Part shown: piece after piece, positions 12,921-58,349 of the stretch | How positions within the stretch are numbered: position 1 is the stretch's first letter | Layout: every line of letters starts with the position of its first letter | Origin: Candidatus Latescibacterota bacterium | Lineage (GTDB): Bacteria > Latescibacterota > UBA2968 > UBA8231 | DNA: 64,000 nucleotides | Assembly (NCBI GenBank): GCA_965197905.1 | Contig: CBDAOB010000004.1 | Span: 864,001-928,000 of the forward strand | Direction: 5' to 3' | The notes under the pieces: generated by a model | The model's database searches: none | What the model saw: the letters and a program-made list of their open reading frames with translations, nothing else | Told to the model about the DNA's origin: nothing | Translations under genes and position numbers: made by a program

Positions 12921-12968
12921 ACCGCGCCAAGCGCCTCTCGATCGAGCCAGATTCCGGCTGGTTAGTAA

Positions 12969-12995
12969 CGACAATGCCGTTTATGCTACCTATCC
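12969..12995 (+). repeat. 27-bp oriIS-like motif, copy A
   Basis: CGACAATGCCGTTTATGCTACCTATCC. Confidence 0.65.
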
Positions 12996-12998
12996 GTT

Positions 12999-14150
12999 TT
13001 ACCACAGCTCGCGAGAGGCCAAGCGCGCTCCTTCTGCCATCGCCGCCAATTTCGCCCACGCAATCCTGGGATCGATTTTGGGATCGGTCGTGGCGAAATG
13101 TGCGAACCCGCAGTCGGTACCGGCGATCACGTTCTCCCTGCCAACCAGTTTCGCGTACCGGACAATCCGCTGCTGCACGAGTTCGGGATGTTCGATGAAG
13201 TTGGTCGTCGAATCCAGCACTCCCGGAATAATCGTTTTTCCGTCGGGAAGTTTGATGCTCTCGAACAGCTTCCACTCGTGCCCGTGGCGGGGGTTGGCGG
13301 CCTCGAAAGAGAGGGCGGAGGGTCGGGCCCTGAACGCGAGATCGATGATGTCCGCAAACGGCGTATCGAGGTGATGCGGTCCCTCGTAGTTGCCCCAGCA
13401 CAGGTGCATTCGCAGCCGGTCCGTCGGGATATCGCGCAGCGCGTGGTTCAGCGCCTCCACATGGAGCTCCCGTATACGATTCAGGTCGTTGGAGCTGTAG
13501 TTCAGCCGCTCCCAGCCGCTCATGGTCAAGTCTGGACAGTCGACCTGCAGCACGAGGCCCGAACGAAAAATGGCGTCGTATTCGACCTTCATCGCATCTG
13601 CCAGCGCGTAGAGATATCCTTCCTCGCTGTCGTAGTACTGGTTCTTGCAAAAATGAGCCAACAGTCCAGGAGAAGCCGCAGTCATGAAGACTTCCTCTGG
13701 GCTGGCGTCGGTCAACGCTGCCTTCAAGTTGTCCAGGTCCTTTTGAAGAAGCGCGTGCTCCGTGTACTCAATGGGCCCGGTGCATACCGGCAGCCGTATG
13801 TCGCTGCTGACGATGGTGCGCCGCTCTCGCGCCAACCGCTGGGTGTATTCGGGGAAGTCTTCGACGACAATGGCCGGCCGGGGACGATCCCGATCCTCAA
13901 GACCGCTGAGGCGATCCTTGGCGTAGGTAGAGTAGGCTACCTTGCCCTGCTCGCCATCGTTGATCACGTCCACGCCGGCGGCGCATTGCCTGGTGACGAC
14001 CTCCTCTACCGACTGAGCGATGAGAGAATCCAGCGCAGACAAGTCAAGACGCTCTCCTGCTTCTTTTGCGCGCAATTGCTCAGCCAGGTTTGCAGACCGC
14101 GGCAGACTACCGGTGTGCGTGATGAGAATCCTGTCGGTGCTGCGTCTCAT
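12999..14150 (-). CDS. Cobalamin-independent methionine synthase II family protein
   Basis: ITHTGSLPR, MHLCWGNY and GTDCGF Zn-ligand motifs. Confidence 0.9.
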   Translation of the reverse strand: MRRSTDRILITHTGSLPRSANLAEQLRAKEAGERLDLSALDSLIAQSVEEVVTRQCAAGVDVINDGEQGKVAYSTYAKDRLSGLEDRDRPRPAIVVEDFPEYTQRLARERRTIVSSDIRLPVCTGPIEYTEHALLQKDLDNLKAALTDASPEEVFMTAASPGLLAHFCKNQYYDSEEGYLYALADAMKVEYDAIFRSGLVLQVDCPDLTMSGWERLNYSSNDLNRIRELHVEALNHALRDIPTDRLRMHLCWGNYEGPHHLDTPFADIIDLAFRARPSALSFEAANPRHGHEWKLFESIKLPDGKTIIPGVLDSTTNFIEHPELVQQRIVRYAKLVGRENVIAGTDCGFAHFATTDPKIDPRIAWAKLAAMAEGARLASRELW

Positions 14151-14207
14151 ATTCGATGAAGCCGCTTGATATCTAGTATTTAGGTCGACACCCTCTGACA
14201 AGTAATG

Positions 14208-14234
14208 GCATAGGAATAATAGTTGCCAGCTTGC
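14208..14234 (-). repeat. Degenerate oriIS-like motif
   Basis: GCAAGCTGGCAACTATTATTCCTATGC; 16/27 to copy B. Confidence 0.4.
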
Positions 14235-14324
14235 CGGCATCAAGATAGACACCTTTAAGTCGAAGCTCGCCGCGTGAAACGCATGACATGAGTGATTTCG
14301 AGCACCGCCAAGGCGAGTAACCCC

Positions 14325-14482
14325 ACAGCAGGCCAGTCATGATGCTGGCGCGCGCGGGACTGCATATAGGCTGGGCTACGTAGGCGTTCTGGAAGACGAA
14401 ACTCTCGTCCGCCAGGGCCGTTCATGGTCGGGGTGTGGATGCGCTCGTTGCCGTAGCAGCGCAACGTGTCGTAGCGCTGTTG
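14325..14482 (-). pseudogene. Sulfatase N-terminal fragment
   Basis: QQRYDTLRCYGNERIHTPTMN/ALADESFVFQNAYVAQPICSPARASIMTG with the CxPxR motif; one frameshift. Confidence 0.85.
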
Positions 14483-14541
14483 GAAATGAAGAGGAGATTG
14501 GGCTTGGCCTTTTACTTAGCTCGGCCGAACTTCCCTCCACC

Positions 14542-15510
14542 CTAAACCCCAGTCGCCATCCAAACGACATTAGGCTTCTTTGATACCCCAAGCGCTAAGT
14601 CATCGTCGAAGTCGTCAGCATCTTGGTAGGTACCGAATAAGCGATCCCAGAAAGTAAAAAAGCCACCGAAGCTGGCATTATAGACACTGGGATGGTTGGC
14701 GTGATGCAGGCGGTGGAATCTGGGGGTGACCAGGACCCATTCGAGCCATTTCATTCTGAAGCGTATATTGGCGTGCATCCAATGATCGGCTAGGACGATG
14801 ACCGCGATAATGTAAATGATAATCCAGTTGGGCAGGAGGAACCACGCCATTAGGATGCTACTGAAATTTCGAATGACATTGTCAAGAAAGCTCGCACGCA
14901 CACCTGAGAACCAATACAGTTGCTCGATGCTGTGATGCCACACATGCATGCGCCAGCACAGGCGGGTGTGCAGCAGGCGATGTAACCAGTAGTAGATCAG
15001 ATCGCTTACGATGAATAACATCACAATTCGATAGACCAGTGAATAGTCGGCAATGTAGCTGTCGATTACAAAATGTTTTAATTCCGCCAAAAGTTCAAAG
15101 CTGCCGAGAACAGAGTAGGTAAACATCACAATTGGGACGACTAGTAAATCTTTAAATTTGCTCAGTAGGTGGACTGTGAAGAAGGCGACTAAATCGTTTT
15201 TAATGCAACCCTTGAAGTCTATTTTTTGGTAAGCGAAAAAGTACTCGGCAAAAGTGAATACTGAACCACTTATAAAGAATAACAGCAGAAAATAATTCCC
15301 GTGCCTGAGTACTCCTTCGATGGCGGCGAATAAGAGGTAGCCGACGATTAGTAACGAGGTGATGTACAGAGCGGCCTGGTACAAGTAATGTTGTTGAATC
15401 CTCTCGACAGGGGCCCTGAGCGCGCCAAACAGGGCCATACGCTCTGAAATACCTCGAATGAGAAAGAGCGCGAATAAAAGATAGAAAACATGGGTGCTGG
15501 TCATGTTCAT
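14542..15510 (-). CDS. Sterol desaturase / fatty-acid hydroxylase family protein, AT-rich
   Basis: His boxes HRLLH, HVWHHS, HWMHAN, HRLHH; WDRLFGT. Confidence 0.9.
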   Translation of the reverse strand: MNMTSTHVFYLLFALFLIRGISERMALFGALRAPVERIQQHYLYQAALYITSLLIVGYLLFAAIEGVLRHGNYFLLLFFISGSVFTFAEYFFAYQKIDFKGCIKNDLVAFFTVHLLSKFKDLLVVPIVMFTYSVLGSFELLAELKHFVIDSYIADYSLVYRIVMLFIVSDLIYYWLHRLLHTRLCWRMHVWHHSIEQLYWFSGVRASFLDNVIRNFSSILMAWFLLPNWIIIYIIAVIVLADHWMHANIRFRMKWLEWVLVTPRFHRLHHANHPSVYNASFGGFFTFWDRLFGTYQDADDFDDDLALGVSKKPNVVWMATGV

Positions 15511-15546
15511 GAAACCTGCGGCCTATGGCGTTGGATCAGTCTGTAT

Positions 15547-16389
15547 TTATTTGTGCTGGTGGTCCAGTTCCAAAGGCATACCTGCGGTAATGTCGTTGTC
15601 CGTTCCGGCGGTGACCGGCCAGGCTTGGCCGCCCTCGAATACAAAGTCTTCCCTGCCGCACAGCCACAGGAACATACGTGCAACACGGACGGAGTCGTGC
15701 CATTTCTCGGGCATTGCGCGGCCTGTGCCGAATGGGATCTTGGTGAAATCGCACTGCGGATCGGCAACCCAGTCGCGCCTGGGTGTGACCGTGCGCCGGT
15801 AGGTGTATTTGAGCAGGTTGCGGATGCCGCTGGCCGTGGAGCTGCTGGCGCGATGCCACATCGAGCAGTGGGTGATAAAGATCGAGCCGGCCGGCGCCAC
15901 CGTCTGCACGGCCTGGCGAATGCTACCGTATTGGGTCATGTAGCGACGCTTGATACGCAGAAAGTGAGAGCTGGGCACGATCTCTGTAGGTCCCAGGCCC
16001 GCGGGCGTGTCCTGTGGATAATAGAACACAAACAGGCTGTCGAGCCGCGGTGAATCGATCGCCCCGCTGTCGCGGTGCCAGCCGCCGCTCGTAGCGCGCG
16101 GGCACTGGACGCGGTGGTTGCTCATGACCATGGGCGATATAAAGTCTTTGCCCAGGAGCGAGCGCACCGCCCCCGCTGCCTGCTGGTTCTTAGTGACGTG
16201 GTCGACGAACCACTCTTCATCCAGGATCTCCATCGGCTGTCCCTCCGGATTCCTGTCGAGGAATTCAGTCGTGCGGCGGTTGACCTCGTCGGGGACCACG
16301 GCCTCGAGCATCATGAAGCCATTCTTGCAGAATTCAATCACCTGCTGGTCGGTCAGTGTCGGTTCGCAATCGTATATCTCTCCTCGCAT
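15547..16389 (-). CDS. Phytanoyl-CoA dioxygenase (PhyH) family protein
   Basis: WHRD, GPTEIVPSSH, MWHR. Confidence 0.85.
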   Translation of the reverse strand: MRGEIYDCEPTLTDQQVIEFCKNGFMMLEAVVPDEVNRRTTEFLDRNPEGQPMEILDEEWFVDHVTKNQQAAGAVRSLLGKDFISPMVMSNHRVQCPRATSGGWHRDSGAIDSPRLDSLFVFYYPQDTPAGLGPTEIVPSSHFLRIKRRYMTQYGSIRQAVQTVAPAGSIFITHCSMWHRASSSTASGIRNLLKYTYRRTVTPRRDWVADPQCDFTKIPFGTGRAMPEKWHDSVRVARMFLWLCGREDFVFEGGQAWPVTAGTDNDITAGMPLELDHQHK

Positions 16390-16678
16390 GATCTGTCCTT
16401 TCCGTGGATTTATTTCTCGCGGATAAATTCGCAGCCGAGCCCGTAAGCTCCGTGCCGCATCTGCTTACGGCGCCTGATAGTGGCAATGAAAACCGCCGAC
16501 GTAGAATAATTACGGTAAAGAATTTCGGCGGTCCCACCAAGAGCCGCGGCTAGAGATTGAAACTACAGAGGGTTCCAGACGCTATTTGCCAGATCTTGAC
16601 CCGAATCAAGCGCTTACATTATTGTTCTGTCTAGATCATCACTTTCCAAAGTAAAGCGATGGTGGAGGTGAGCTCATA

Positions 16679-19639: not shown

Positions 19640-19856
19640 GCACAGACAATAGTCTGATCGTCTTCTTGCGAGTCGTCGCCACTGAACGCTCGCACGTCAC
19701 CGAGTAGCTTCTCCAAGATCCCTGCGGAAAGACCCGCCTAGCAGCCCTGGCGTACCGTCTCCGCCGTCTGATCGAGCCCGAACATATCCCCAGCACTGTT
19801 TCGTGCTTCCATGAGGCCATCGGAGCAGAATGCGAGAGCGCGTTAAGGAGATATCC

Positions 19857-20552
19857 ATGACAAAACCACTCATATCCTCTGAAGTTATCGAGGATCTGCG
19901 TCAGATTGACAGCGCAACGGTTGCCAATGCAATCGAGCATTTCAATCTACGTGATCCAGTCACTGGATATGCTTCCTGGGAGTTGCCATGCCAATTTCCC
20001 AAACTGGCACCCATGGTCGGCTACGCTATAACCTGTACGGCGGACACCACAACTGCTGGCGATAATCGCCCCATGCGGTTGCATGAACTACTGGATATTA
20101 TCCACGATGCACCAAAGCCCGTTGTTTTGGTCGCACAGTACGTGGGACCAGACCGCCAACGCACTTGCCTGATCGGTGATATGTTTGCGGCCACCCTGCA
20201 AAAGCTTGGTGCGGTTGGCGTGGTCACAGAGTTGGGAGGGCGTGATTTTCGGGGCATTGAAGAGCGGGCGCCAGGCTTTCAACTTTTTTGTCCAGGTTCA
20301 GTGGTATCTCACGGATATGGCCTCTATCATGATTTCAACCTGACAGTATCGGTCTGCGGCCTGACAGTCCAACCCGGCGATCTGCTTCACGGCGATGCCA
20401 ACGGGATTGTCCACGTGCCCATTGAAATCGCTGAGGATGTGGTAGCACAGAGCAAACGCGTGCTGGAGGAAGAGGCAGCATTCTTTGATTTTCTGCACAG
20501 TGATGCCTTTAGCTACGAAGGGTTGAAGCAACGTATGGGACGGAAAGACTAG
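19857..20552 (+). CDS. RraA / HMG-aldolase family protein
   Basis: PMVGYAIT, GDMFA, VQPGDLLHGDANG; AAGGAG RBS. Confidence 0.85.
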   Translation: MTKPLISSEVIEDLRQIDSATVANAIEHFNLRDPVTGYASWELPCQFPKLAPMVGYAITCTADTTTAGDNRPMRLHELLDIIHDAPKPVVLVAQYVGPDRQRTCLIGDMFAATLQKLGAVGVVTELGGRDFRGIEERAPGFQLFCPGSVVSHGYGLYHDFNLTVSVCGLTVQPGDLLHGDANGIVHVPIEIAEDVVAQSKRVLEEEAAFFDFLHSDAFSYEGLKQRMGRKD

Positions 20553-21524: not shown

Positions 21525-22334
21525 CTATGACTCGGCTGGCACGAATTGTTCGACGATCTTCTTGAAACTCGGCTGCAGCCCCTTCTCCCTTATCTCCATC
21601 AGTTCAACCGTCTCCTCATCCAGTTCAATCCCATGCTCTTGCGCTGTCGCCACCGCCTCCATATCGCCGCGATAGGTGTCCTGCGGTACGAATGTGTAGA
21701 AGATACATCTTCTGTCCCTGTCTTCGGGCACCCACTTGAAGGCAGCGTGCAGCAGTCGGAGAGGCATGATGATGGCGTCGCCCGCCTTTACCGGAATGTT
21801 GACTGCACCTAAGCCGTCCAGCGCCTTAGGCGAGTCTTTCTTGGGGTAGACGAACGTCGATTTGTGTGAGCCCGGAAGAACGACGAGGCCGCCGTCGCCC
21901 GGCTCTACGTCTGTGAAGTAGACGGCAATGAAAAAGAGATCGCAGAAGATAGATCGAGTCTCAAAACTGGAATAGAATCCTGGTGCGTTTTCGACCCTGT
22001 ACCAATTTATTTCCTTCTGGCCGTGAAAGCCGTGTTCAGTATGCGAGGCGCCGTTGATCATCAAGCCGCCGCCGGTGAGGCGCGGCATGTTGTTGAGGAG
22101 CTCACATGCATACTTCAACATCTTGGGAGATCTCGGTATCCGTTCCAGAACCTTGTCGTAGAGGAAGGCGCCGGGATATTTGTCACCATATCCAGAATCC
22201 TTGTATAGATGCGAGCAGTTCTCGACGATCTTTTCTGTTGCCTCGAACGCTTTGGCTGTGGTTGCCTTGTCGATCATAGCCTCTACTTTGAGGAATCCAA
22301 GAGTATCGAACAAGTAGAGTTCTTCGTCTGTCAT
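21525..22334 (-). CDS. PhyH family dioxygenase
   Basis: MTDEELYLFDTLGFL, GGLVVLPGSHK. Confidence 0.8.
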   Translation of the reverse strand: MTDEELYLFDTLGFLKVEAMIDKATTAKAFEATEKIVENCSHLYKDSGYGDKYPGAFLYDKVLERIPRSPKMLKYACELLNNMPRLTGGGLMINGASHTEHGFHGQKEINWYRVENAPGFYSSFETRSIFCDLFFIAVYFTDVEPGDGGLVVLPGSHKSTFVYPKKDSPKALDGLGAVNIPVKAGDAIIMPLRLLHAAFKWVPEDRDRRCIFYTFVPQDTYRGDMEAVATAQEHGIELDEETVELMEIREKGLQPSFKKIVEQFVPAES

Positions 22335-28250: not shown

Positions 28251-28416
28251 GAGCGTGTCCGAGTATCCCATTTGAGCTGCCGGGGCGTCATTGCTGCCCC
28301 TGTCTGCGTTGCGCTTCTCTCTCTGAATTCCCCAATTCAGATCGCTCACGCGCCTTGCCATCGACAACAATGACGCCCCCTCGCTTGTCAAAGCGAATAC
28401 TCGGACACGCTCCTAG
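28247..28416. mobile_element. MITE with 16-bp terminal inverted repeats and flanking CTAG
   Basis: CTAG-GAGCGTGTCCGAGTAT ... ATACTCGGACACGCTC-CTAG, perfect. Confidence 0.8.
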
Positions 28417-29239: not shown

Positions 29240-29473
29240 ATGTTGGCAACGCTCACCAGCAAAGGCCAAGTAACCGTTCCCAGCGAGATCAGGAAACGCC
29301 TGAAATTGCAACCTGGCGACCGGCTGGATTTCGTCCTTCACGAGGACGGTCATATTGAGGTGGTGCCCATGCGCGGTAGCATCACTGAACTGAAGGGAAT
29401 GGTGCCGAGCCCGGCCAAAATCGTTCGACTCGAGGACATGGACGCGGCCATAGCAGATGCCAGCCGCGGATGA
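29240..29473 (+). CDS. vapB: AbrB/MazE-type antitoxin
   Basis: MLATLTSKGQVTVPSEIRKRLKLQPGD; AGGAGG RBS. Confidence 0.9.
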   Translation: MLATLTSKGQVTVPSEIRKRLKLQPGDRLDFVLHEDGHIEVVPMRGSITELKGMVPSPAKIVRLEDMDAAIADASRG

Positions 29474-29871
29474 TCGGGATCGACACCAACGTTCTGGTGC
29501 GATACATCGTGCAGGACGACCCCGACCAGTCACGTGCGGCCGTCCGGTTCCTCGAATCAACCTGCTCTTCAGAGCGGCCAGGTTGGATATGCCTGATCGT
29601 GCTGTGCGAGCTCGTGTGGGTTCTGACGCGAGCGTATGGATACCGCCGCGCGACGGTGGCAGATGTGCTCGAGCAGTTGCTGAGCACAACCGAGTTGCGA
29701 GTTGAGCAATCGACTGTCGCCTGGCGGTCGGCGCGAGATTTCAGATCCGGTAATGCCGAATTCGCTGACTATCTGATCGGTCATCTCAACGCCCACCACG
29801 GCGTCGACTATACGATCACGTTCGATCGCAGAGCTGCCGATCAAGATTCCTTTCGACATCTGGCTACCTGA
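29470..29871 (+). CDS. vapC: PIN-domain toxin
   Basis: MIGIDTNVLVR, CELVWVL, FADYLI, TFD; ATGA overlap. Confidence 0.9.
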   Translation: MIGIDTNVLVRYIVQDDPDQSRAAVRFLESTCSSERPGWICLIVLCELVWVLTRAYGYRRATVADVLEQLLSTTELRVEQSTVAWRSARDFRSGNAEFADYLIGHLNAHHGVDYTITFDRRAADQDSFRHLAT

Positions 29872-31786: not shown

Positions 31787-31876
31787 TGAGCTCCTCCTTT
31801 TGTGCAGAATCGCCACGCCCGTTTGCAGCCCAAAAAAACGCCGAGCAACCGAGGCGGCGAGCCTTGCCGTAACTGA

Positions 31877-31903
31877 CGATAATGCCAATTATTTGCCCTA
31901 TCC
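31877..31903 (+). repeat. 27-bp oriIS-like motif, copy B
   Basis: CGATAATGCCAATTATTTGCCCTATCC. Confidence 0.7.
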
Positions 31904-31942
31904 TCAGCCGCTGACCGGCCATTGTGCCCAGTTCAGTCAGAT

Positions 31943-40701: not shown

Positions 40702-40740
40702 GCGATCGACCCGCGTGCTAGCCTGAAGGGAGAAATCGGA

Positions 40741-42048
40741 ATGAAGGTAACCATCTATTGTGCCACGCTGCTGGCTTTCACTTGCCTGAGCGAGATCGCC
40801 GCCGAGTCGAACTGGCCGAACTGGCGCGGTCCCAGCCGAAATGGACTAAGTCCAGACAAAGGGCTACCCGTGAACTGGGGGCCGACGGAGAACATCGTCT
40901 GGAAGACCGCTTTGCCCTCCTGAGGTGCCGGCACGCCCATCGTCTGGGGCGACCGCATCTTCGTGACATCCGCGTCAGGAACCGAAGCCGATGCGGTGGA
41001 GCCGACAAAGCGCGGCGGCGATGCCGGTGGGCCTGCCCTGCTTCTCATCTGCATCGCCAAGGAGACCGGCACGGTGCTCTGGCAGCGGGAGCTAGACAGG
41101 GGGAATCAGTACCATCGAAAACACAACCTTGCATCCCCTTCGCCAGTCACCGACGGAAAAAACGTGTGGACGGTAGCGGGCACTGGCATGGTGAGCGCCT
41201 TCGACATGGAAGGCGAGCAGCTCTGGCGCAAGAATCTCCAGGAGTTATACGGCCCCTTTGGTCTGATATTCGGGTACGCCGCTTCTCCGTTGTTGCTCGA
41301 CGACAAGCTGGTCATCGAAGTGTTGCACGGGTACAAGACGGACGATCCCTCGTACCTGGTCGCCTTCGATGCGTTGAGTGGCGATGTAAAGTGGCACCAG
41401 GAGCGACCTACGGACGCCGTCAAGGAATCGCCCGATGCCTACACCACGCCGACGCTTCTTCGCCGCAACGGAAAGAGCGAGATTGTCGTCTCAGGCGCGG
41501 ATTATGTGACCGGTCACGATCCTGACACCGGCGCAGAGCTCTGGCGTATCGCCGGCCTTAATCCGGAAAAGGAGGGCAATTACCGCGTCGTCGGCTCACC
41601 AGTTGTCGTGGACGGAATGATCTACGCGCCTACCCGCAAGCGACCTCTGCTCGCCATCCGGGCCGACGACGACCGACCTCGTATTGCCTGGCGATTTATG
41701 GGAAAGGCAGCCCCCGACGTTCCCACCCCCGTCAGCGACGGCAGCCGCTTCTTCATGGTGGACGACCAGGGCATCGCCACCTGTCTCGATGCCAAGACCG
41801 GTGAAGCGGTCTGGGGACCGGAACGCACCGCCCAAGGTGTGGTCAGTGCCTCACCCATTCTGGCGGACGGCAAGCTCTTCATCACCAATGAGAATGCCGT
41901 CACCACGGTGCTAGAAGCGGGACCTGTATTCAAGATGCTGGCCACCAACGAGCTGGATGGCAGCTACACCCTCTCTTCTCTCGCCGTGAGCGATTCGCGG
42001 ATCTTCATACGAACGGCGACCCACCTCTACTGCATCGTCAAGACCTGA
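40741..42048 (+). CDS. PQQ-binding-like beta-propeller protein; in-frame TGA at 40921-40923
   Basis: NWPNWRGP...WKTALPS*GAGTPIVWGDRIFVT; the frame continues past the stop. Confidence 0.85.
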
Positions 42049-48787: not shown

Positions 48788-50339
48788 ATGATGGACGCGG
48801 AACGAGAAAAGGCACGCTGGCGCCGCCGCCGGATCATTTACAACAACGACGGCGACGACGCGATCGAGGCGCGCTCCGGAGTAGAGCACGAGTATGATGT
48901 TTCCGAAGCCCTGACGGTGCGCGCCAGCGGAGATCTGGTACAGGATTTCCTCGATGCCCGCAGCACGCCCCTGATCGGCTCGCAGGTGGACAGCAACTGG
49001 TACGCCAGTTGCATGGCGGGTCTCACCTTTTCCCACCACACCAAACTCGGCGGGTTCTACGGCAAGGAGATCCCGCTGGAGCTGGTGGAGAGATATGGCC
49101 GCGATACCCTTGAGATCCAGCTGGACTTCAGCCACGAGTACGGCATGGAAGCAGCTTGGTGCCTGCATGAACGATATCCACGACGCCTTTCCACCTGGAA
49201 GCCGCCGCTGGACCTACGGGCTAGCGGCGTTCAAACAGGAGCATCCCGACTGTATGATGGGTGAGCAAGGCGACTGGGACAAGTATGGTCAACACCACCA
49301 CCCGAAAGGACAATGGACGCGATTGGATTTCGCCATTCCGGAGGTGCGCGAGCACATCTTCCGCATCATCGAAGAGGTGGCGGAGAACTACGACGTGGAC
49401 CTCATCGGCATGGAGTTCTTCAAGTACTGGCCGTTCTTCCGCGAGTCGCGGGATGGAGATCCCGTCGAACCCGAACACGTGGAGATAATGAACGATCTTC
49501 TCCGCCGCATTCGGCGCATGGCGGACGACGTTGCCAGCCGCCGCGGGCGCCCGCTGCTACTGGCTGCCCATACTCCATTCAGCCTGGCGGATTGTATACA
49601 CGTTGGCGTGGACCTGGAAACGTGGCTCCAGGAGGGATTGATCGACCAACTCATGCCCGGCGGCAACTTGGAATCGGTGTTTTGCAGTTCCTACAGCGAC
49701 ATCATCGCCCTGGGACACAAGTACGAGGTCCCGGTCTATCCCTGTATGTCGTGGGGCTTCTGGGATCGCTGGGCTTTTCTCGGACTGAGCGATGGCAAAT
49801 ACAGACAGTTCAGCTTGTGGATAGAGACCCTCTACGGGGGACAACCCGAACGCGCCGGCAAACCGTCGTTCATCCTTGTGTTCAACGAGTGGGAGGGCAC
49901 ACTCGCCGCGGCGCGCGGTGCCGCCTCGAATCTGTTCAACGCCGGCGCCGATGGACTCTACCTCTTCAATCCCGCCTTTGGCGAGCCGCAATGGTGGCGC
50001 GAGATCGGCGAGGTAGCGACAATGGCCGGTAAAGACCGTATTTATGGCGTCGACCGCTTTGAAGGCGCGCGGAGCATCGATTTCAGCCTGCATCTGTGGG
50101 ACTGGGTTCCAGGTAACGACCTCTCTGTGAAGCTGAACGGCGCAGCCGTCGATGGGCTGCAACCGACCGACCCGGACCGAAACCCGGAGGAAGGTCAGTG
50201 GTTGCAGGGCAATCTCGAGGCCAAGCAGATCAATCGAGGTGAGAATCAGCTGGAAGTGGGGGTGAAAAAACGCGGTGGGTCCGCCTCATCTCCAGTCGTT
50301 CTGGATACGGTGCAATTGCGCATTCTGTGCGAATCCTGA
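48788..50339 (+). CDS. GHL10-like TIM-barrel protein, paralogue 3, frameshift near 49160
   Basis: Same motifs as paralogues 1 and 2, split over two ORFs. Confidence 0.7.
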
Positions 50340-50560
50340 GCGTCGCTGCCTGCCGCGGTAACGCCGAGCTTGAGTCGGGCGCCGCTGTTATCGTCCGTCG
50401 TGGGCGGTACTTTTGGCAAAAGCGACGTTCAGGCGCGCCCGAAATAGATTCGCGCCAGCGGTTCGGGGTCGTTTCCCATGGCCAGCCGTCAGCGCTAGGT
50501 CCCATAATTCTTGAGGAAATGAGAAGCACAATTTCACAGGCAACCACAGGGGAATGGAAA

Positions 50561-51459
50561 ATGAGCCAGACACCATACCGAGTGGCCCCACCCGGATTTA
50601 CGGAGGAGCAGTGGCAGACCTTCGAAGAGGCATCGTCGTCATCGAGGACGCCCTGACCAACGACGAAGTGCGGCAATATATAGAAGCGATCGACCGGGTG
50701 GCGACCACCCTGCCCGAGTACCGCGATAACGCGTACTGCAACCCGGAAAACATCGTCGAGTTCGACCCGGTCTTCACCGGCCTGATCGACCACCCGCGCC
50801 ACATCGGTTTCGCCTACGACCTGTACGGCGAATTGCTCAAGCTGCACCAGAGCCAGTTTCTTCTGCGTCCCCCCGGCGGCAATGAGTACAATTCCTGGCA
50901 CCCCGATCCCCCCCTTGCCCTGCCTTACGGCACCTTCTCGCCCACATTGCCGCTGCAGATCAAAATCGGCTACTGGCTCACCGATTTACCGCGCCAGAAG
51001 ATGGGCAACCTGGTGGTTTTGCCCGGCAGTCACCGGCAGCAGTACCTGGATACCTACTACACCCACGAAAGCGCGCCCGGAGAGCGCGTCATGCGCTTGC
51101 AGAAGGGCGCCCTTACCGTCATGAATTCGAACATCTGGCACCGGGTAGAGCCCAACGAGAGCGAGGTGACGCGCAAGAACATCTTCGTCGCCTACTGTCC
51201 GGCCTGGGTTACGTCAACCGATCGCATACTTTCCGATCCTGAGTGGCTCGAAAGCCTCAACCGCGAGCAGCGCATCATCATGCGCAACTATGACCAGGCC
51301 TACCAGTATGCCAAGCCGCCGAATGAGGACTTTCCGCTCTTTCTGGATCGCGACACCGGCCTGGACCGTGATCCCGACCTTTACCGCGAACACGTGGGCC
51401 TGAGCCGCCGCAAGCGCCTAACGGCGGCAGAAAAGCGTCTGGTCCAGGCGGCAGTGTAG
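50561..51459 (+). CDS. PhyH family dioxygenase, frameshift near 50630
   Basis: WHPD, GNLVVLPGSH, IWHR. Confidence 0.8.
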
Positions 51460-51495
51460 AGAGAGTATGCGGCGGCATATAAGCGACGTTCAGGC

Positions 51496-52803
51496 GTGCG
51501 CAAGGTCGAGCTCAAGGATCTTCACCACATCATCGTCCACCGCGACGAGCACATGTATTTCTACGCCACCAACAGAGGCGGCATCTGGAACTTCGGCGAT
51601 GGCGAGATCGCCGTCGCCTATCTGGCCGCGCCCGTGGATTACAGCGTCATGCGGGAAGGTCCCAACAAGAACTGGTCGCGGCACTGCGGCGGGCCTCGCA
51701 GCATGTATCGTCCCCACGAGCGCTGGGGCAGCGAGTCGGGCTGTATCATCAGCCGCTCCTTCGACAACGGCGAGACCTGGCCCGATGACCAACGCCAATG
51801 GATCTGGAACAACGATCGCACCACCGACGAGATTCTCGACTGGCTGCGACCGCGAGGCCGTTCGGAGCGCGAAGAGATCGACATGGGCGCCACCGATTCC
51901 ATTATCCACTTCTGCCCTGCGGTGTATCTCAAGCCTCCTATCGGCAGTGTCGGGCGCGATTCGAACAGCTTCGACCTGGGTCGCCGGCAACACCTACCGA
52001 CCTTCAGCCTGCGCAGCGGGGACCGCGGTCGAACCTGGGAAAACCATGCGACGGTGATCGACAGCCCATCCTGGGCGCCTAATGGTGGGTACATGGGTGC
52101 GAATCTCGGTTGCGTCCGCTTCGACAACGGAGTTCTCGGCCATATCGGCGCCGTCTACTGGCGACACGTGCTCTGTTACTACGTCAGCTATGACAACGGG
52201 ATCTCGTGGGAGTACTGCAGCGATGTGGTTCGCGCGAGCCCGCACCTAATCCGCTCGGCGCCGGGCGAGGAAGGGGTCGGCTATACCTATCCGGGGGTGC
52301 ACCGACTACCCGACGGGCGTCTGATGGCCTGCATGCACAAGATGCCTCCCGAAATGCCCGGTGTTGCCTTTTCCGCGGACGACGGCATGACCTGGTCTGA
52401 GCCCCAGTTTGTGAGCAGCCCGGGCAATCGCTTCGGCAACATGAGCGATCCTGAACCCGAGTGCCCGTTGAACGAACCGTCCCGTTTCAATCGCTGGCGA
52501 TGCCCCGTGGCTCTGGTGCTGCGCGACGGTCGAATCCTCGTTCTTTTTGCGCGCCGTACCCCCAGCCTGGGCAACCGCGGAATCCTGGGCGTGGTGAGCG
52601 AGGACCTAGGCGAAACCTGGAGCGAGGAATTCGTGGTGCGGGGCGATGCCTACAGCTACGACATGGGTTACCCGGTGCCTACTGAACTGCCCGACGGCCG
52701 TATTTTCGTGGCCTACTGGTTCTGCGCCAAAGAACAGGACGAACCGATCGAGGACGTGCAGATCGTGCGCCACATCGCGGGAAGCTTTTTCAGATTGGAC
52801 TGA
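51496..52803 (+). CDS. Sialidase/BNR-repeat protein
   Basis: Five Asp-boxes (SxDxGxTW-type). Confidence 0.85.
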   Translation: MRKVELKDLHHIIVHRDEHMYFYATNRGGIWNFGDGEIAVAYLAAPVDYSVMREGPNKNWSRHCGGPRSMYRPHERWGSESGCIISRSFDNGETWPDDQRQWIWNNDRTTDEILDWLRPRGRSEREEIDMGATDSIIHFCPAVYLKPPIGSVGRDSNSFDLGRRQHLPTFSLRSGDRGRTWENHATVIDSPSWAPNGGYMGANLGCVRFDNGVLGHIGAVYWRHVLCYYVSYDNGISWEYCSDVVRASPHLIRSAPGEEGVGYTYPGVHRLPDGRLMACMHKMPPEMPGVAFSADDGMTWSEPQFVSSPGNRFGNMSDPEPECPLNEPSRFNRWRCPVALVLRDGRILVLFARRTPSLGNRGILGVVSEDLGETWSEEFVVRGDAYSYDMGYPVPTELPDGRIFVAYWFCAKEQDEPIEDVQIVRHIAGSFFRLD

Positions 52804-52836
52804 CCGGCCAATTGCTAACGGGCGCGTTCCCGCTCA

Positions 52837-52899
52837 GGATCGATCGGGCGAATCGTCAGCATCTTTCCTCTACTCGGGGTTTGCACGAATTCGCGCGCC
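52837..52899 (-). repeat. Mosaic of a thermonuclease-gene fragment and the GNAT-GNAT junction
   Basis: 18/18 to 6617-6634 abutting 41/46 to 5209-5254. Confidence 0.8.
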
Positions 52900-52974
52900 G
52901 CCTTTCTAGTTGCAATGGCGCAGACTTTATCCTGTCTCTGGTCGCCGGCATAAACAATGGCAAGTCTGTAGCAT

Positions 52975-55266
52975 GTGCAGACTGTACCTATGGCCTTTAA
53001 CAGACTGTTGGTTTGGTTCATGGTGGCCCTCTCGGCGGGGGCCGGACCCACCACCGCCCAGCACTCGGTGGCGCGGCAGTGGAACGAAGCCCTGCTGGCG
53101 GCGATCCGCACCGATTTCGCCCGCCCCACGGTCCACGCCCGCAATCTCTTCCACATGAGCATAGCCTTGTACGACGCCTGGGCCGCGTACGGCGACGGCC
53201 CCGAACGGACGTATCTACTGGGCCGGACCGTGGACGGCTTCACCGCCCCTTTTGCCGGGGTCCCCCGCCCCGACGACATCGAGGCCGCCCGCCATCGGTC
53301 CATGAGCTACGCCGCCTACCGCCTCATGGAGCACCGCTTCGCCAACTCGCCGGGCTTGGGGCCCACCTTGACGCGCATCGACGGGCTCATGGACGCGTTG
53401 GGCTTCGACCTCAATTTCACCAGCACCGACTACGGCGGCGGCGAGCCGGCGGCCCTGGGCAATTATATCGCCCAGCAACTCATCGAATTCGGCCTCCAGG
53501 ACGGCTCCAACGAACAGCTAGGGTACCACAATCTGTTCTACACCCCCGTCAATCCACCCCTGCGACCGGACGAGCCGGGTAATCCCGATATCATCGACCC
53601 CAATTTCTGGCAGCCCCTCAGCCTGGAGGAATTTATCGACCAGTCGGGCCGGGCCCAGCCCGGCGACGCGATCCCCTTCCTCAGCCCCGAGTGGGGCGGG
53701 GTGACCCCCTTCGCCCTGACGGAGGACGACCTCACCCTGTACCGGCGCGAGGACAACGACTACTACGTGTACCACGACCCTGGGCCGCCGCCCCATATCG
53801 ACACCCAGCGCCCCGCCGCTGCCGCCACCCGCCAGCGCTCGGGCTTGGCACTGGCCTCGGCCGAATACCAGTGGGGTTTTGCCCTGGTGGCCGTCTGGTC
53901 GTCCCACCTCGACCCGGCCGACGGCGTCCTGTGGGACATTTCGCCCGGCACCATCGGCAATATCCCCGAATTGCCCACCACGCTCGAGGAATACCGCCAG
54001 TTCTACGACCTGCTCGAGGGCGGCGACCCCAGCCTGGGGCATCCGCTTAACCCCCACACCGGCGAGCCCTACGAGCCGCAGCTGGTGCCGCGGGCTGACT
54101 ACGCCCGCGTACTGGCCGAATTCTGGGCCGACGGCCCCGATTCGGAAACCCCGCCGGGCCACTGGTTCACCATTCTCAACTACGTCGACGACCACCCCCT
54201 CTTCGAAAAGCGTTTCAAGGGCGCCGGCCCCATCCTGGACGATCTCGAATGGGACGTCAAGGCGTACTTCGCCCTGGGAGGAGCGGTGCACGACGCCGCT
54301 ATCTCGGCCTGGGGCATCAAGGGCTGGTACGATTACGTCCGCCCCATTTCGGCCATCCGCTGGATGGCCGACACCGGCCAGAGCAGCGACCCTGGCCGAC
54401 CGCGCTTCCACCCGGCCGGCATCCCGCTCATCGACGGTAGTATCGAGCTGGTCGAGGCGGGCGACCCGCTGGCCGGCAACGACGGCGAGCACGTCAACAA
54501 AATCAAACTCAAGGCCTGGCGCGGCCCCACCTATATCACCAACCCCGACACAGATATAGCCCGCGTCGGCTGGATCCTGGCCGAAAACTGGTGGCCGTAC
54601 CAGCGCCCCACCTTCGTCACCCCGCCCTTTGCCGGCTATATCTCGGGCCACTCGACGTTTTCGCGCGCCGCCGCCGAGGTCATGACCCTGCTCACCGGCG
54701 ATCCCTTCTTCCCCGGCGGGATGGGCGAATTCCATGCCCTGCGCAACGAATTCCTTGTCTTTGAGGAAGGCCCCTCGGTCGACTTGGTGCTGCAGTGGGC
54801 CACATACCGCGACGCCTCAGACCAGACCAGTCTCTCGCGCATCTGGGGCGGCATCCACCCGCCGGCCGACGACATTCCCGGCCGCTTGATCGGCCTGCGC
54901 ATCGGCCGCGACGCCTTCGCCCTGGCCGAGGAACACTTCGTCCCGCCGCAGACGGCGGTGGCGGAGGAAAAGGTCGATGAGGTGCCAGCAGATTTCGTCC
55001 TGAGGCAGAACTGGCCCAATCCGTTCAACGCCGGCACGGCCATCTCCTTTGCGCTACCCGCCCATGATGCCGTGGACCTGGCGGTGTACAATATCTCGGG
55101 CCAGCGCGTGGTCGCGCTGGTGCGGGGGGAGCGCCCGGCCGGGCGCCATCGGGTGGCTTGGGACGGCCGCGACGACTTTGGCGCCGCACTGGCCAGCGGC
55201 GCCTATCTGTACCGCCTGCGGGCAGGCGACTGGGTACACACGCGCAAATTGCTGCTGCTGCGCTAG
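52975..55266 (+). CDS. Vanadium-dependent haloperoxidase family protein with a C-terminal FlgD-Ig domain
   Basis: KGWYDYVRP, PPFAGYISGHS, SRIWGGIH; NWPNPFN...WDGRDD...LASGAY. Confidence 0.85.
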   Translation: MQTVPMAFNRLLVWFMVALSAGAGPTTAQHSVARQWNEALLAAIRTDFARPTVHARNLFHMSIALYDAWAAYGDGPERTYLLGRTVDGFTAPFAGVPRPDDIEAARHRSMSYAAYRLMEHRFANSPGLGPTLTRIDGLMDALGFDLNFTSTDYGGGEPAALGNYIAQQLIEFGLQDGSNEQLGYHNLFYTPVNPPLRPDEPGNPDIIDPNFWQPLSLEEFIDQSGRAQPGDAIPFLSPEWGGVTPFALTEDDLTLYRREDNDYYVYHDPGPPPHIDTQRPAAAATRQRSGLALASAEYQWGFALVAVWSSHLDPADGVLWDISPGTIGNIPELPTTLEEYRQFYDLLEGGDPSLGHPLNPHTGEPYEPQLVPRADYARVLAEFWADGPDSETPPGHWFTILNYVDDHPLFEKRFKGAGPILDDLEWDVKAYFALGGAVHDAAISAWGIKGWYDYVRPISAIRWMADTGQSSDPGRPRFHPAGIPLIDGSIELVEAGDPLAGNDGEHVNKIKLKAWRGPTYITNPDTDIARVGWILAENWWPYQRPTFVTPPFAGYISGHSTFSRAAAEVMTLLTGDPFFPGGMGEFHALRNEFLVFEEGPSVDLVLQWATYRDASDQTSLSRIWGGIHPPADDIPGRLIGLRIGRDAFALAEEHFVPPQTAVAEEKVDEVPADFVLRQNWPNPFNAGTAISFALPAHDAVDLAVYNISGQRVVALVRGERPAGRHRVAWDGRDDFGAALASGAYLYRLRAGDWVHTRKLLLLR

Positions 55267-55461
55267 CCAGGACGGATACTTCGCCGCTCAGGGCTAGCCG
55301 GCCCTTGTCTCTGAGCACGGCTTCGGGGGTGGGATGCCAGCGCTTGCCGCCGGCGAGCACAATCGGTCGGGGTCCGGAAACTGCGCCGGGTCCCGGTTGG
55401 CCGCGCCCAGCATTATGAAATCATTCGGTTCGGGCACACGCCGGTGGGTTCAGCGCTGCTC

Positions 55462-56262
55462 CTACCACACCGTCCATCCGCCATCAACAACCAGATTATG
55501 ACCTGTCACATACGCTGAGAGATCACTGGCCAGGTATGCAACAGCTCCTTTGAAATCCTCCTCGGTGGCCATGCGACGCAGTGGCGTACGTGCCTTGTAG
55601 CGTTCGTGGAAGACGTCCAGTTGGTTGCGCCACACACCACCCGGCGATATGGCATTGACGCGCACGTCTGGTGCCATCTCGGTCGCCAGCCAGCGGGTCA
55701 ACTGTAGCAATCCGCCTTTGCCGGCCGCGTAGGCAGCCGGAAGGCTATCAGGGGTGTCTTCATACATGGGTACATGAGGTCCTACTATCCCATAGATCGA
55801 GCCGATGTTTATCACGGAGCCGCGTCCCGATTCTGCCAAGGCCTCAGCACATGCCTGCACCAGCACAAATGGCGCCGTCAGGTTCACTTCTAAGGCCAGC
55901 CTCCAGGGTTCAGACCGTTGCTCCAGAAACGGGGCGGCCCATCCCTTCAAGCCTGATCCCACCAGCGCAGCGCAGTTGACCAGGATGTTCAACCGTCCGA
56001 AACGGTCGAGAACCTTCTCGGGTACCGACCGCACTGCCTGCTCATCCGCCAGATCGATGACCAGTGGCAGGGTCTCGACGCCGAAGTTTTGGTGAATCTG
56101 CTTGGCCACGGCGGTACAAGATTCGTGTGCCGTGTCTAGCACGACGATGGCAGCGCCCAACTCGGCCAGCGCCTCGCATATCGCAACCCCGATATGTCCT
56201 CCGCCACCGGTAATCAGGGCTACACCCCCTTGCAGATTCATCAGCTCCTGCAGTGATTTCAT
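55462..56262 (-). CDS. SDR oxidoreductase
   Basis: TGGGGHIG, YAAGK, VDGGW. Confidence 0.9.
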   Translation of the reverse strand: MKSLQELMNLQGGVALITGGGGHIGVAICEALAELGAAIVVLDTAHESCTAVAKQIHQNFGVETLPLVIDLADEQAVRSVPEKVLDRFGRLNILVNCAALVGSGLKGWAAPFLEQRSEPWRLALEVNLTAPFVLVQACAEALAESGRGSVINIGSIYGIVGPHVPMYEDTPDSLPAAYAAGKGGLLQLTRWLATEMAPDVRVNAISPGGVWRNQLDVFHERYKARTPLRRMATEEDFKGAVAYLASDLSAYVTGHNLVVDGGWTVW

Positions 56263-56334
56263 CCTACGCCCGACATCGCATAGAGGCCAATTGTAGTTCC
56301 ATTTTCTTTCACTTCACGGCGTAGTCGAGGCATT

Positions 56335-57024
56335 TCAGTGTCCCATGCGCTTGAGCCCTGCATCCATGGTGAAGTCCGGACTCTTCATGAAATCAAACGC
56401 CTCACGCTCGAGCTCTCGTATCTTCTCCACCTCGGCCGGCAGCTCGTGGGCGATCTCCAGCGGAACCGTGATCACGCCATTCACGTCGCCATGAATCAGA
56501 TCGCCGGTCTCGACGTACATGCCGTCGACGACCACCGGCATGCCCCAGGTCACTCGACGTGGGTTGCCGTGCGAGGCGGTGGTGCCCAACGCGAAACACT
56601 GCATGCCCAGCGCTTTGACCTCGTTCACATCGCGGATAGCGCCGTCGGCCACCATTCCCACCGCCCCTAGTTGCTGCATGAGGGTTGCCATATACTCACC
56701 AAACGGCGCGGCGTCCCCATGTCGTGGCCCGATATCCTGCTGGACCAGCACGACCGGCTTGGGCGAGGCATCAACCAGCTCTGCGAATTGCCTGAGTCCG
56801 CGGCCGACGCTCGGTGGACCGGGGCTGGTTGGGTCCGTCTGCGAGGTAACAGCGTAGCCGACCATGACGCCCAGCTCAGGGAACATGCAGCGCATACGGT
56901 GGCCGGTGAAACCAGTGACAAGCTCTCGTACCTTAAATGCCTCGACGGCATTCGACAGAGTAGGGGTATCGATACCGCGCAGCGTCTCGATGAGCTCGGG
57001 TGAAAGGGTCTTTTTCGTTGTCAT
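56335..57024 (-). CDS. RraA / HMG-aldolase family protein, paralogue 2
   Basis: MVGYAVT, DGAIRD, GDLIHGDVNG. Confidence 0.85.
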   Translation of the reverse strand: MTTKKTLSPELIETLRGIDTPTLSNAVEAFKVRELVTGFTGHRMRCMFPELGVMVGYAVTSQTDPTSPGPPSVGRGLRQFAELVDASPKPVVLVQQDIGPRHGDAAPFGEYMATLMQQLGAVGMVADGAIRDVNEVKALGMQCFALGTTASHGNPRRVTWGMPVVVDGMYVETGDLIHGDVNGVITVPLEIAHELPAEVEKIRELEREAFDFMKSPDFTMDAGLKRMGH

Positions 57025-57029
57025 GTTAA

Positions 57030-57920
57030 TCACACCTCCTGATAAGTCCTCTTTTGCACCGCGACCACCTGCTCCAGTTGGTTCAGATAGTTCACGGAAC
57101 TCTCGAGAAGCGTTTCACGCAGCAGCTCCACGTTGAGCCTGGATGGTACAAACCCGATGGACAAGAAGCCCTGGTACCCAATTTCATCAAGCGTCCTGAT
57201 GACCTCTATGAAATCAATATGCCCGGTGCCAGGCGCCTCGCGATTGCTGTCCGACACGTGCACGTTCATCAGCTTACTGCCCGCCATCCTGAGAGCGCCG
57301 CAGATGGAGCTGTCTTCGATGTTTGCATGAAAGAAGTCTACCAAAACGCCCAAGGCGCTGGCATCGATCTCTCCAATGACGCTCATGGTGTCAGCGACGC
57401 TGTTCAAGAATCCTGGATGGCCCTCATACCGGTTGATGGGCTCGATGGCAATGGCGACGTTGTGAGCCGCGGCATATTCACACATCTCGCTGGCAGATTT
57501 GATAAAGTTCTGTCTGATGATCTCGAGCGGCACACTGGAGCGCGGATAGTCAGGGCGTAAGGGAGCCGCGCAGACCTCGAAGATCGGTGAGCCCAGGTTC
57601 GCCGCCAGGTCGATGCACTTTTGGGCGTAATCTAAGGCGTGTCTTCTCACCGCATCGTCGCTCGACGCCAGGTCTCTCTCTTCTCCGGCGTCCCAGCCGC
57701 CCCAAGACCCACCGAGCGTTGGTAGCTCCAGGCCGAGCGCGGCCGCAATGCTCGCTATTTTCCTGGCCAATGTCGGATCGATCCTGTCCGGCTGGCCCTT
57801 GAGTTCGATACCGTTGTACCCCGCCTGCGCAATCATCTCAAGCACCTCGCGCGGATTTTCCACGGCATCGAACCCAGCCACTGCTAACGCACTGGCCTTC
57901 ACCGAGTATTTCAAAGCCAT
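57030..57920 (-). CDS. Sugar phosphate isomerase/epimerase, paralogue of 20617-21495
   Basis: MALKYS start, EPINRYE, DFFHANIE, HVSDSNR. Confidence 0.9.
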   Translation of the reverse strand: MALKYSVKASALAVAGFDAVENPREVLEMIAQAGYNGIELKGQPDRIDPTLARKIASIAAALGLELPTLGGSWGGWDAGEERDLASSDDAVRRHALDYAQKCIDLAANLGSPIFEVCAAPLRPDYPRSSVPLEIIRQNFIKSASEMCEYAAAHNVAIAIEPINRYEGHPGFLNSVADTMSVIGEIDASALGVLVDFFHANIEDSSICGALRMAGSKLMNVHVSDSNREAPGTGHIDFIEVIRTLDEIGYQGFLSIGFVPSRLNVELLRETLLESSVNYLNQLEQVVAVQKRTYQEV

Positions 57921-58063
57921 TGCTGTTCCTCCCTTAGCGAAATCCTATAGCGGCTATCAGGACAGGCTGTTGCACACAGCGCGTCGGCTCGGCCATCACG
58001 TCGTCCGTCAACGGAGAAGCCGTCGCCAAGTTTCGAATCGTCGAGACGAATGATGGCAGCAAA

Positions 58064-58090
58064 GTATAGGACAAATAAAGACCGTTATCG
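58064..58090 (-). repeat. 27-bp oriIS-like motif, copy C
   Basis: CGATAACGGTCTTTATTTGTCCTATAC. Confidence 0.7.
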
Positions 58091-58111
58091 TTAGTGACGC
58101 CGAGGGTCCGT

Positions 58112-58172
58112 GCGCCATCGGGTGGCTTGGGACGACCGCGACGAGCTTGGTGCCGAATTGGCCAGCGGCGCC
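58112..58172 (+). repeat. FlgD-domain gene fragment
   Basis: 55/61 identical to 55143-55203. Confidence 0.9.
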
Positions 58173-58198
58173 GATAATGCCATTTATTTGCCCTGTCC
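58172..58198 (+). repeat. 27-bp oriIS-like motif, copy D
   Basis: CGATAATGCCATTTATTTGCCCTGTCC; 25/27 to copy B. Confidence 0.7.
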
Positions 58199-58322
58199 TT
58201 CGCTGGAGTTGGTAATTATATCCTGATTGTCAATAGGCCCAGAGAACATCCACTATAACCCCTACCTCCGGAATATTGGCCGATTTTAATTTTCTTAGCT
58301 TTTCAGACTGTTTTTCGATGTC

Positions 58323-58349
58323 CAAAAGCCCCTTTATAAATTCCTATAC
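58323..58349 (+). mobile_element. IS91/ISCR oriIS-like end
   Basis: AAAAGCCCCTTTATAAATTCCTATAC resembles the TT..AATTCCTAT(A/C)C terminus recalled for IS91/ISCR. Confidence 0.55.

Follow-up and report, generated by a model that had tools for sequence, protein, structure and literature searches.

ISCR-type elements are known mainly from antibiotic-resistance plasmids and are blamed for the spread of many resistance genes. The transposases of IS91 and IS1294 are two-tyrosine enzymes. The cassette arrays of superintegrons consist of long series of same-facing gene modules with a repeated end between them, in which similar ends are clustered. The transposition of ISCR elements is without experimental demonstration (PMC6218425, PMC9376610), and the DNA behind their ori is variable and mostly faces away from it, as was also found here (PMC6218425). 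The right-end miniatures of IS801 are 5'-truncated fragments with read-through into upstream DNA and no need for a ter end (PMC3189936). The remnants described below share these features with them, but the IS801 fragments are plain insertions with a conserved tetranucleotide at their start, whereas neither a 5' consensus nor a plain insertion was found here. For IS91 and IS1294 (PMC13181058), an essential oriIS, a transposase able to act in trans on mini-elements, a subterminal palindrome and the lack of target duplications are described, features that the present element may share; the tetranucleotide described there beside the ori belongs to the target, whereas the bases after the ori in the present element are its own.

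The window analysed in this study is a stretch of 64,000 nucleotides from Candidatus Latescibacterota bacterium (assembly GCA_965197905.1, genome G000, 91% complete). All genomes compared are metagenome assemblies, and those of its kin are not independent of each other. The initial annotation had described four core copies of a 27-bp motif, and all of them proved genuine: exact consensus matches are located at 12969(+), 31877(+), 58064-58090(-) and 58172(+), with 0.00 expected from 100 shuffles. The genome scan proposed alongside them, conducted with a genome-refined 40-bp matrix, yielded 37 sites above 22 bits in G000 and none in the reversed genome. Three of the four core copies are contained in this set; the copy at 12969 scored 11 bits with the 40-bp matrix, rising to 21 bits when a 26-bp matrix was used. 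Upstream, the homology of the copies extends over about 30-530 bp and reaches the transposase 3' end. Downstream, similarity had been described as stopping right after CCTAT(A/C)C, but it continues for two more bases, which are TT, TC or AT depending on the variant. Each copy was shown to be a 5'-truncated remnant retaining the ori, with unrelated DNA starting directly behind CCTAT(A/C)C and the two variant-specific bases.

The short variant A end at 12961..12997(+), recognized by consensus and matrix matches, comprises the motif at 12969-12995 and two terminal bases; a MetE-like gene on the opposite strand (12999-14150) has its stop codon 3 bp away from the motif end. Directly 5' of this ori, tblastn revealed a transposase fragment in inverted orientation (12846..12968, minus strand) that corresponds to about amino acids 372-412 of the full-length L021 protein, and the DNA of 12846-12917 matches remnants in the congeneric genome G002 at 85%. 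The remnant at 31829..31905(+), about 76 bp long and identified by its consensus match, lies at a synteny break, and the two blocks flanking it are about 85 kb apart in G002. A third remnant of about 50 bp (58062..58113, minus strand) is situated upstream of epimerase/RraA/SDR genes (55462-57920), an operon that is also preceded by an ori in G002 and G020, there with a shorter spacer. Behind the 58064 ori, both spacer forms were present, as strain variants, among the metagenome contigs matched to 52000-64000. Back-to-back with this copy lies a remnant of about 30 bp (58169..58200, plus strand; consensus match), and the 68-bp spacer between the two ends (58108..58175, plus strand) is 88% identical to window positions 55139-55206, which lie within an ordinary gene. 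Five weaker copies had been reported as well. The one at 58323-58351(+) is indeed an ori of another variant: it belongs to a 100-bp remnant (58252..58351, plus strand) that has CCTATAC-AT as its terminus, lies 27 bp ahead of a gene for a 2-hydroxyacid dehydrogenase and shows 91% identity over 100 bp to C3:305409-305501. The remaining four were dismissed. Those at 14208 and 16476 scored below zero and that at 8565 reached 1.1 bits, all background-like, and at 6867(-) the CCTATA is internal to a C-terminal remnant (6820..7102, minus strand) recognized by transposase homology, which has an internal deletion, includes part of the 3' untranslated region and lacks its ori end.

As judged from sequence and position, the motif represents the 3' end (oriIS) of a rolling-circle element that is of ISCR type, measures about 1.8 kb and occurs in this bacterial family. 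The oriIS, ending in CCTATAC-NN, sits about 200-250 bp downstream of the transposase stop. Behind the full-length transposases of relatives (L005, L021, L022), motif variants lie about 200-220 bp past the stop; in G000, all 11 transposase traces are C-terminal, and seven of them are followed on the same strand by an ori at a distance of 148-366 bp. The 3' part of the motif is common to the published ISCR1 ori 22-mer (PMC13023784) and a plasmid ISCR end, and the suggested oriIS identity is supported by this match to ISCR1/ISCR3-type ends together with the location behind transposase stops. Full-length HUH transposases, encoded in G015 and G020, possess an N-terminal zinc finger and a single tyrosine in the catalytic motif, whereas G000 contains only fragments. 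The protein matches Zn_Tnp_IS91 and Y2_Tnp, and its top NCBIfam match is ISCR clade Ia (NF052416), although its 379 and 354 bits remain below the cut-off of 925, a difference from described ISCR elements. The catalytic motif reads LCRYV in L021 and L022 versus YLARY in L004, which carries a YxxxY motif. Membership in the Y2 group (IS91/IS801/IS1294) was rejected for L021 and L022 because they have no YxxxY; the Y2 transposase originally claimed is thus replaced by an ISCR-type enzyme with one catalytic-motif tyrosine (Y1). ISCR1 and plasmid ISCR3-type elements (L073, L074) have the zinc finger, the HUH domain and the single tyrosine in common with it at 41% identity, and their ori is placed likewise, about 200-240 bp past the stop and ending in CCTATAC plus two bases. 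Several copies in G020, G017 and G019 share a 5' boundary at which a GGGAG...CTCCC repeat, possibly marking a ter end, precedes the start codon by about 110 bp; a ter side was not found in G000. At the junctions read, for which an empty site for comparison was lacking, neither terminal inverted repeats nor a target-site duplication were apparent, and no target tetranucleotide was present at either junction, beside the ori or at the truncated 5' ends. Only one of six folded strands showed a strong ori hairpin (z below -2.5).

Searches with PF04986, PF14319 and tblastn revealed no intact transposase in G000 at its 91% completeness, and none was found in G002. With C-terminal traces in all 11 cases and not one intact gene detected, the window copies look like fossils. 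The non-autonomous state postulated for the ends in G000 is supported, whereas there is no support for a transposase presently acting in trans, an intact gene having been found in neither genome. The ori-bearing remnants of G000 are worn down to a median of about 50 bp. A co-oriented array was ruled out for this genome by an orientation count of 6/15. Tyrosine recombinase searches gave 15 hits in G000, none of them in the window.

Compared with G002, all three ori clusters of the window lie at synteny breaks, and seven of the ten window breaks are without an ori. Breaks at the 3' end of the motif, as predicted initially, were seen in the window and at the junctions of relatives; as an explanation of the patchwork of genes, however, the ends account for only 3/10 window breaks, and they are not co-oriented here. 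Among 97 ori ends examined in relatives, 21 had the start of a G000 orthologue within 400 bp. In 11 of these the orthologue started at -7..+3 of the ori end, for which chance predicts about 0.002 per site, and in the other ten it started away from the end. The two bases after CCTATAC agreed with the orthologue in only 2 of the 11 cases and therefore belong to the element, not to the flank. None of seven junctions with both flanks mapped was a simple insertion. One 6.0-kb passenger is collinear with a 6.4-kb region of G000; an ori borders it on one side and a remnant on the opposite side, and the cut lies within a gene. The 5' truncation is random, with 32 truncation points at 28 different 4-mers. 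In each of the three informative read-through duplications, the gene was longer or complete in the upstream copy and reduced to a cut piece in the downstream one. Passenger-remnant joints were inspected for microhomology in three cases, of which one was cleanly readable and blunt. A comparison of two G000 regions with G001, G002 and G020 revealed no empty and filled pair at one locus, and neither activity of the element nor a circular form was observed.

Relatives contain arrays of 7-34 units and at least 40 ends per genome, located on the chromosome and carrying metabolic genes, with most copies reduced to the ori, whereas ISCR elements occur in one or a few copies. The main array of G020 has 34 same-facing ends in 150 kb. 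Its neighbouring ends are more alike than in shuffled order (p=5e-5), a likeness that was significant in one of the three arrays of G020 (the other two gave p=0.30 and 0.39); ori variants run in stretches along it, and remnant lengths are not strictly nested. Co-orientation amounted to 57/62 in G020, 11/12 in G002 and 5/5 in G017, the counts for G020 and G017 being inflated because these regions were chosen for the clustered, co-oriented appearance of their remnants. Replichore bias was rejected as the cause in G020, where remnant orientation flips more than twice around the chromosome. The passengers measure 0.1-10 kb, are often multi-gene or cut within genes and occur in either orientation. 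In its long same-facing series with repeated ends the organization resembles superintegrons, but the repeat is a variable-length transposase remnant instead of an attC site, and the passengers differ in their size range, gene content and orientation. No description of tens of oriIS ends arrayed on a chromosome was found in the literature covered, which largely lacks subscription papers including the ISCR8 work.

We consider it probable that the window copies are fossils of ISCR-type capture events at the ori end, as the whole explanation of their presence. The HUH transposase would act at the ori end and join it to other DNA without a target consensus, and the far end of the joined piece would become linked to a stretch of the element that has been copied again and is truncated at a random 5' position. 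The resulting ori|passenger-remnant-ori| units would pile up in the vicinity of an active copy, forming arrays of one orientation. The process may be a single step or may proceed via a circle that is reintegrated by recombination, and the data do not discriminate between the two. Downstream capture would involve a top-strand 3'-OH after CCTATACTT, and the IS91 scheme a bottom-strand nick. In G000, the island would have been scrambled further by other processes, and some of the window copies may have been retained for an outward promoter that they provide. More tentatively, a one-step capture of foreign DNA behind a resident ori by the ISCR-type HUH enzyme may have built integrase-free, superintegron-like chromosomal arrays, of which the window could be an old, scrambled product. 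The 3' end of the ori would then be linked to a donor fragment or elongated on it, after which synthesis would come back to the element at a random position and copy the ori anew. Repetition, with transposase supplied from cis or trans, could lead to tens of gene modules, and ori-to-ori units might be excised and re-inserted.

Ordinary one-ended or prematurely ended ISCR transposition might instead have scattered 5'-truncated ends locally, with homologous recombination between these repeats and deletion placing them at seams later and no genes being brought in. IS801 forms right-end miniature fragments in vivo, and its investigators regarded genomic fragments mostly as recombination substrates (PMC3189936). 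Recombination between remnants would likewise put breaks at ori ends, and the mixed orientation of the G000 copies and the many window breaks without an ori agree with such debris. We nevertheless regard this origin as rather unlikely, given the lack of simple insertions among the mappable junctions, two bases behind the ori that do not derive from the flank, truncation points without the tetranucleotide of the IS801 miniatures and the runs of ori variants along the main array; moreover, few G000 remnants are long enough for recombination.

A role as outward promoters is quite improbable as the reason for which the ends now serve and persist, with shuffling incidental, like P-OUT of ISCR1. Of 139 genes next to an ori, 106 point away from it, close to the 84% reported for ISCR1 (PMC6218425), but this count rests on gene calls from a home-made model, and one ori end in four faces the end of a gene. 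The shortest remnants retain only the last 40 bp, and variant A can be read by eye as a -35/-10-like pair with a spacing of 17 bp and TATACT at its end, whereas a sigma-70 promoter scan of 57900-58400 gave no match. Promoter function leaves the junction anatomy unexplained and is compatible with capture, not exclusive of it. That the motif is a recombination site of the Xer/dif type or is bound by a regulator, the alternative named in the initial annotation, is scarcely credible and, as the origin of the motif, already refuted. Variant A includes ATAA-N6-TTAT, and 33 of 42 next genes in G000 point away from the motif. However, homology extends hundreds of bases into transposase coding sequence, other ori variants occupy the same position with the same CCTATAC end but without ATAA-N6-TTAT, and the distance to the next gene varies from <20 to >1000 bp, unlike the fixed promoter distance of a regulator site. 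A Xer/dif site is a stand-alone 28-bp sequence of 11-6-11 structure with conserved XerC and XerD arms. The motif, by contrast, is embedded in transposase remnants, its arms differ between variants, and a pattern search found no site with a classical XerD arm in G000.

Under the capture explanation, this lineage leaves dozens to more than 100 such junctions in each genome, and orthologues of the donors are present in sister species. The rules of ISCR capture thus become statistically readable with regard to end position, absence of a target consensus and donor copy. The lineage is also a source of intact transposases from environmental bacteria together with their cognate ends. The same-facing arrays of the relatives point to large-scale gene gathering by an ISCR-type element; if they grow as proposed, they would represent a second route, beside integrons, to large chromosomal gene-cassette arrays.

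The consensus of the 27-bp motif matched the window four times without a mismatch, at 12969(+), 31877(+), 58064(-) and 58172(+), with 0.00 matches expected. The motif is a real feature, and the four core copies of the initial annotation were borne out. A 40-bp matrix iterated over the assembly (6.69 Mb, five contigs, 91% complete) retrieved 37 sites scoring over 22 bits, against none when the genome was reversed. Addition of a broader 26-bp matrix, whose threshold is noisier (33 real versus 4 null sites above 19 bits), raised the total to 42 ori ends, 15 of which lie in C4:860-1010 kb, a region that includes the window and represents 2.2% of the genome. Of five weaker copies proposed earlier, that at 58323-58351 is an ori of a different variant, of which C3 holds another copy. 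The copy at 6867 sits within a transposase remnant whose end is lost, and those at 14208, 16476 and 8565 did not exceed background in matrix scoring.

Pairwise alignments of the copies end at the 3' side of the motif and reach 80-480 bp upstream, the longer ones taking in the final codons of an IS91-family transposase. With tblastn, 11 transposase traces were detected in G000, the genome holding the window; all start at residue 264 or beyond of about 490, and seven are followed by a same-strand ori at 148-366 bp. The zinc-finger N-terminus was not found in G000 or in the congeneric genome G002. Full-length transposases with Zn_Tnp_IS91 and Y2_Tnp domains occur in the related genomes G020 (L021) and G015 (L022), and both elements terminate in motif variants about 200-220 bp after the stop codon, which places the motif downstream of an intact transposase. 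L022 shares 41% identity with plasmid proteins that bear an IS91-family transposase annotation, and it carries a HUH motif with one tyrosine where the IS91-type protein L004 has two. L004, encoded in G008 of the same bacterial family, is a separate transposase without the ori motif. The ISCR1 ori 22-mer quoted in PMC13023784 and the end of plasmid ISCR3-type elements (L073/L074) have their 3' part in common with the motif, and both stop two bases after CCTATAC. Judged by transposase and ori sequences, the element is an ISCR-type member of the IS91 superfamily. The earlier assignment to an IS91/ISCR oriIS end is upheld by the ori sequence and its placement 3' of the transposase, while the accompanying Y2 transposase is not, given the single tyrosine.

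The window copies look like worn fossils. Remnants, i.e. 5'-truncated pieces that keep the ori, are short in G000 (median about 50 bp), and neighbouring oris are not co-oriented (6/15). The ori ending at 12995 is flanked 5' by a transposase piece in inverted orientation and lies 3 bp from a stop codon; oris 58064 and 58198 stand back-to-back and enclose a 68-bp piece copying 55139-55206. The window was compared with about 260 kb of the 6.7-Mb G002 genome, in regions chosen beforehand by matches, yielding blocks of 92-98% identity, with collinearity lost at 10 junctions. Each of the three ori clusters lies at one of these; none interrupts a block or a joint that stays collinear. The break at ori 31903 is tight (42 bp), and in G002 about 85 kb separate its flanks; the other two clusters are linked more loosely because of an unmatched gap of 2.5-3 kb. 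The suggested link between synteny breaks and the motif 3' end is supported at every ori cluster, closely at one, but seven of the 10 breaks are free of oris. The homology to G002 and G020 also stops at a short ori-like end, 57935-57949(+), which could be a micro-remnant or a chance occurrence.

Other features were observed in the window. A repeat of about 165 bp at 28251-28416, which recurs elsewhere in G000 and four times in G002 at 94-96%, may be a MITE. Two intergenic repeats, at 16575-16662 (about 88 bp, at least five other copies, beginning at the start of a synteny block) and 14330-14483 (about 150 bp, three other copies), are not ori remnants. A beta-lactamase-fold gene (PF00144, 33293-34424) and a PQQ-type propeller gene (40755-42048) are apparently split over two frames. 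A MazE/AbrB and PIN toxin-antitoxin pair lies at 29240-29871 and an Abi_C domain gene at 2091-2885. Two large paralogous families have many copies across relatives, one weakly GHL10-like (10374-11972, 30149-31786, 49167-50339), the other weakly PhyH-like (15547-16389, 21525-22334, 50554-51459); near-identical copies of 10383-12003 occupy three places in G002.

Across 185,579 species genomes the exact pattern occurred in 21 stretches of five genomes, titled Candidatus Latescibacterota (three) and uncultured Gemmatimonadaceae (two); it is present in 8 of 61 family genomes. The search for the transposase C-terminus gave hits in 38 of 75 genomes of the family and 51 of 168 of the phylum, nine having at least 10 matches. 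Matches numbered 127 in G020, 66 in G015, 50 in G017, 14 in G002 and 3 in G001, and were mostly C-terminal and clustered (among the matches listed, 150 of 260). Contig C10 of G043 holds further same-strand clusters of transposase C-termini (354-381 kb, 550-561 kb, 1.46-1.65 Mb), together with several zinc-finger copies in long frames; G043 is likely an active genome.

In clusters fetched because they looked dense and co-oriented, G020 contains 34 same-facing oris in 3611350-3760097, 19 in 1736113-1803789 and seven in 1237471-1251885. Neighbours within 12 kb in these selected regions were co-oriented in 57/62 cases in G020, 11/12 in G002 and 5/5 in G017. Four oris lie within 11 kb of G002 where G000 has none, and their passengers, the DNA between one ori and the next remnant, match separate G000 loci at 92-99%. 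Ori variants form runs along the main G020 array, with an adjacent score of 104 against 56 ± 7 (p=5e-5). No such order was evident in the second and third arrays (p=0.30 and 0.39), one of which is nearly uniform.

A G000 orthologue starts within 400 bp of 21 of 97 oris in relatives, in 11 of the 21 at -7 to +3 of the ori end; chance would give about 0.002 per site, or about 0.6 in 21 for starts uniform over 400 bp. The two bases after CCTATAC vary by variant (TT in 50/53; AT in 9/11 of another) and are shared with the orthologue at only 2 of the 11 junctions, two of the mismatching ones lying inside genes; they therefore travel with the element. Similarity was said to halt right after CCTAT(A/C)C, but two variant-specific bases further belong to the element. 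No target consensus was seen at the 11 junctions. Truncation on the 5' side is random, 32 ends giving 28 different 4-mers, and remnants often carry internal deletions. A 6.0-kb passenger behind ori 3624570 of G020 is collinear with G000 C2:349867-356263 and breaks off 33 bases short of a stop codon. Three duplications run past the element into upstream genes, which we take from familiar motifs to be IS110-like, PhyH-like and sulfatase-like; in 3/3 the gene is longer or complete in the upstream copy and reduced to a cut piece in the downstream one, two further, uninformative pairs being set aside. By a home-made gene caller, the next gene points outwards from the ori in 106 of 139 instances (33/42 in G000), at very variable distance.

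ISCR-type ori ends, truncated on the 5' side, thus lie at non-homologous seams and form arrays in relatives. The transposase would make the joint between ori and passenger, and a variable stretch ending in ori would be re-copied on the far side of the passenger. One step could suffice, if strand transfer or priming at an ori already in place drew on donor DNA and then switched back to the element. Alternatively, a truncated copy would land beside a gene, one-ended transposition would form a circle, and recombination would return it to a similar remnant. This two-step scheme was reportedly proposed for ISCR1 by Toleman in 2006. A summary of it is given in PMC13023784. Runs of like variants fit both routes, while the absence of plain insertions (0/7 oris with both flanks mapped) leans weakly towards the one-step route. 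The ends could also be passive debris, as PMC3189936 argues for IS801, above all in the scrambled island of G000.

The unit C4:958727-960434 (gene, remnant and ori) recurs in G002, where its 5' boundary is identical and another ori immediately precedes it. Tandem ori-after-ori copies of very short length (about 6-78 bp; G000 C3:305716 and C4:1313570; G020:1760022/1759944 and 1793790) suggest that ori ends themselves are preferred sites for further events. At G020:3639775-3640753 (L050), a 975-bp piece of window 40702-41679 has inward-facing ori ends on both sides; beside it lies a permuted segment from that region of G000, and the two may hint at a circular intermediate.

With its ISCR-type transposase and ori, the element appears to work as ISCR does, although its best NCBIfam match (L022), to ISCR clade Ia, scores below the cut-off, and it differs from IS91/IS801 in their Y2 and tetranucleotide features. 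According to the comparison literature (PMC3189936, PMC13181058, PMC5737581, PMC13023784, PMC9330008, PMC9376610, PMC6218425, PMC13393415), right-end fragments, read-through capture and variable genes behind ori are already in print; within the literature searched, mostly non-subscription journals, no paper was found to describe chromosomal arrays with tens of ori ends. The interest of the system lies in its lineage-wide arrays and in the junction rules that can be read from them.
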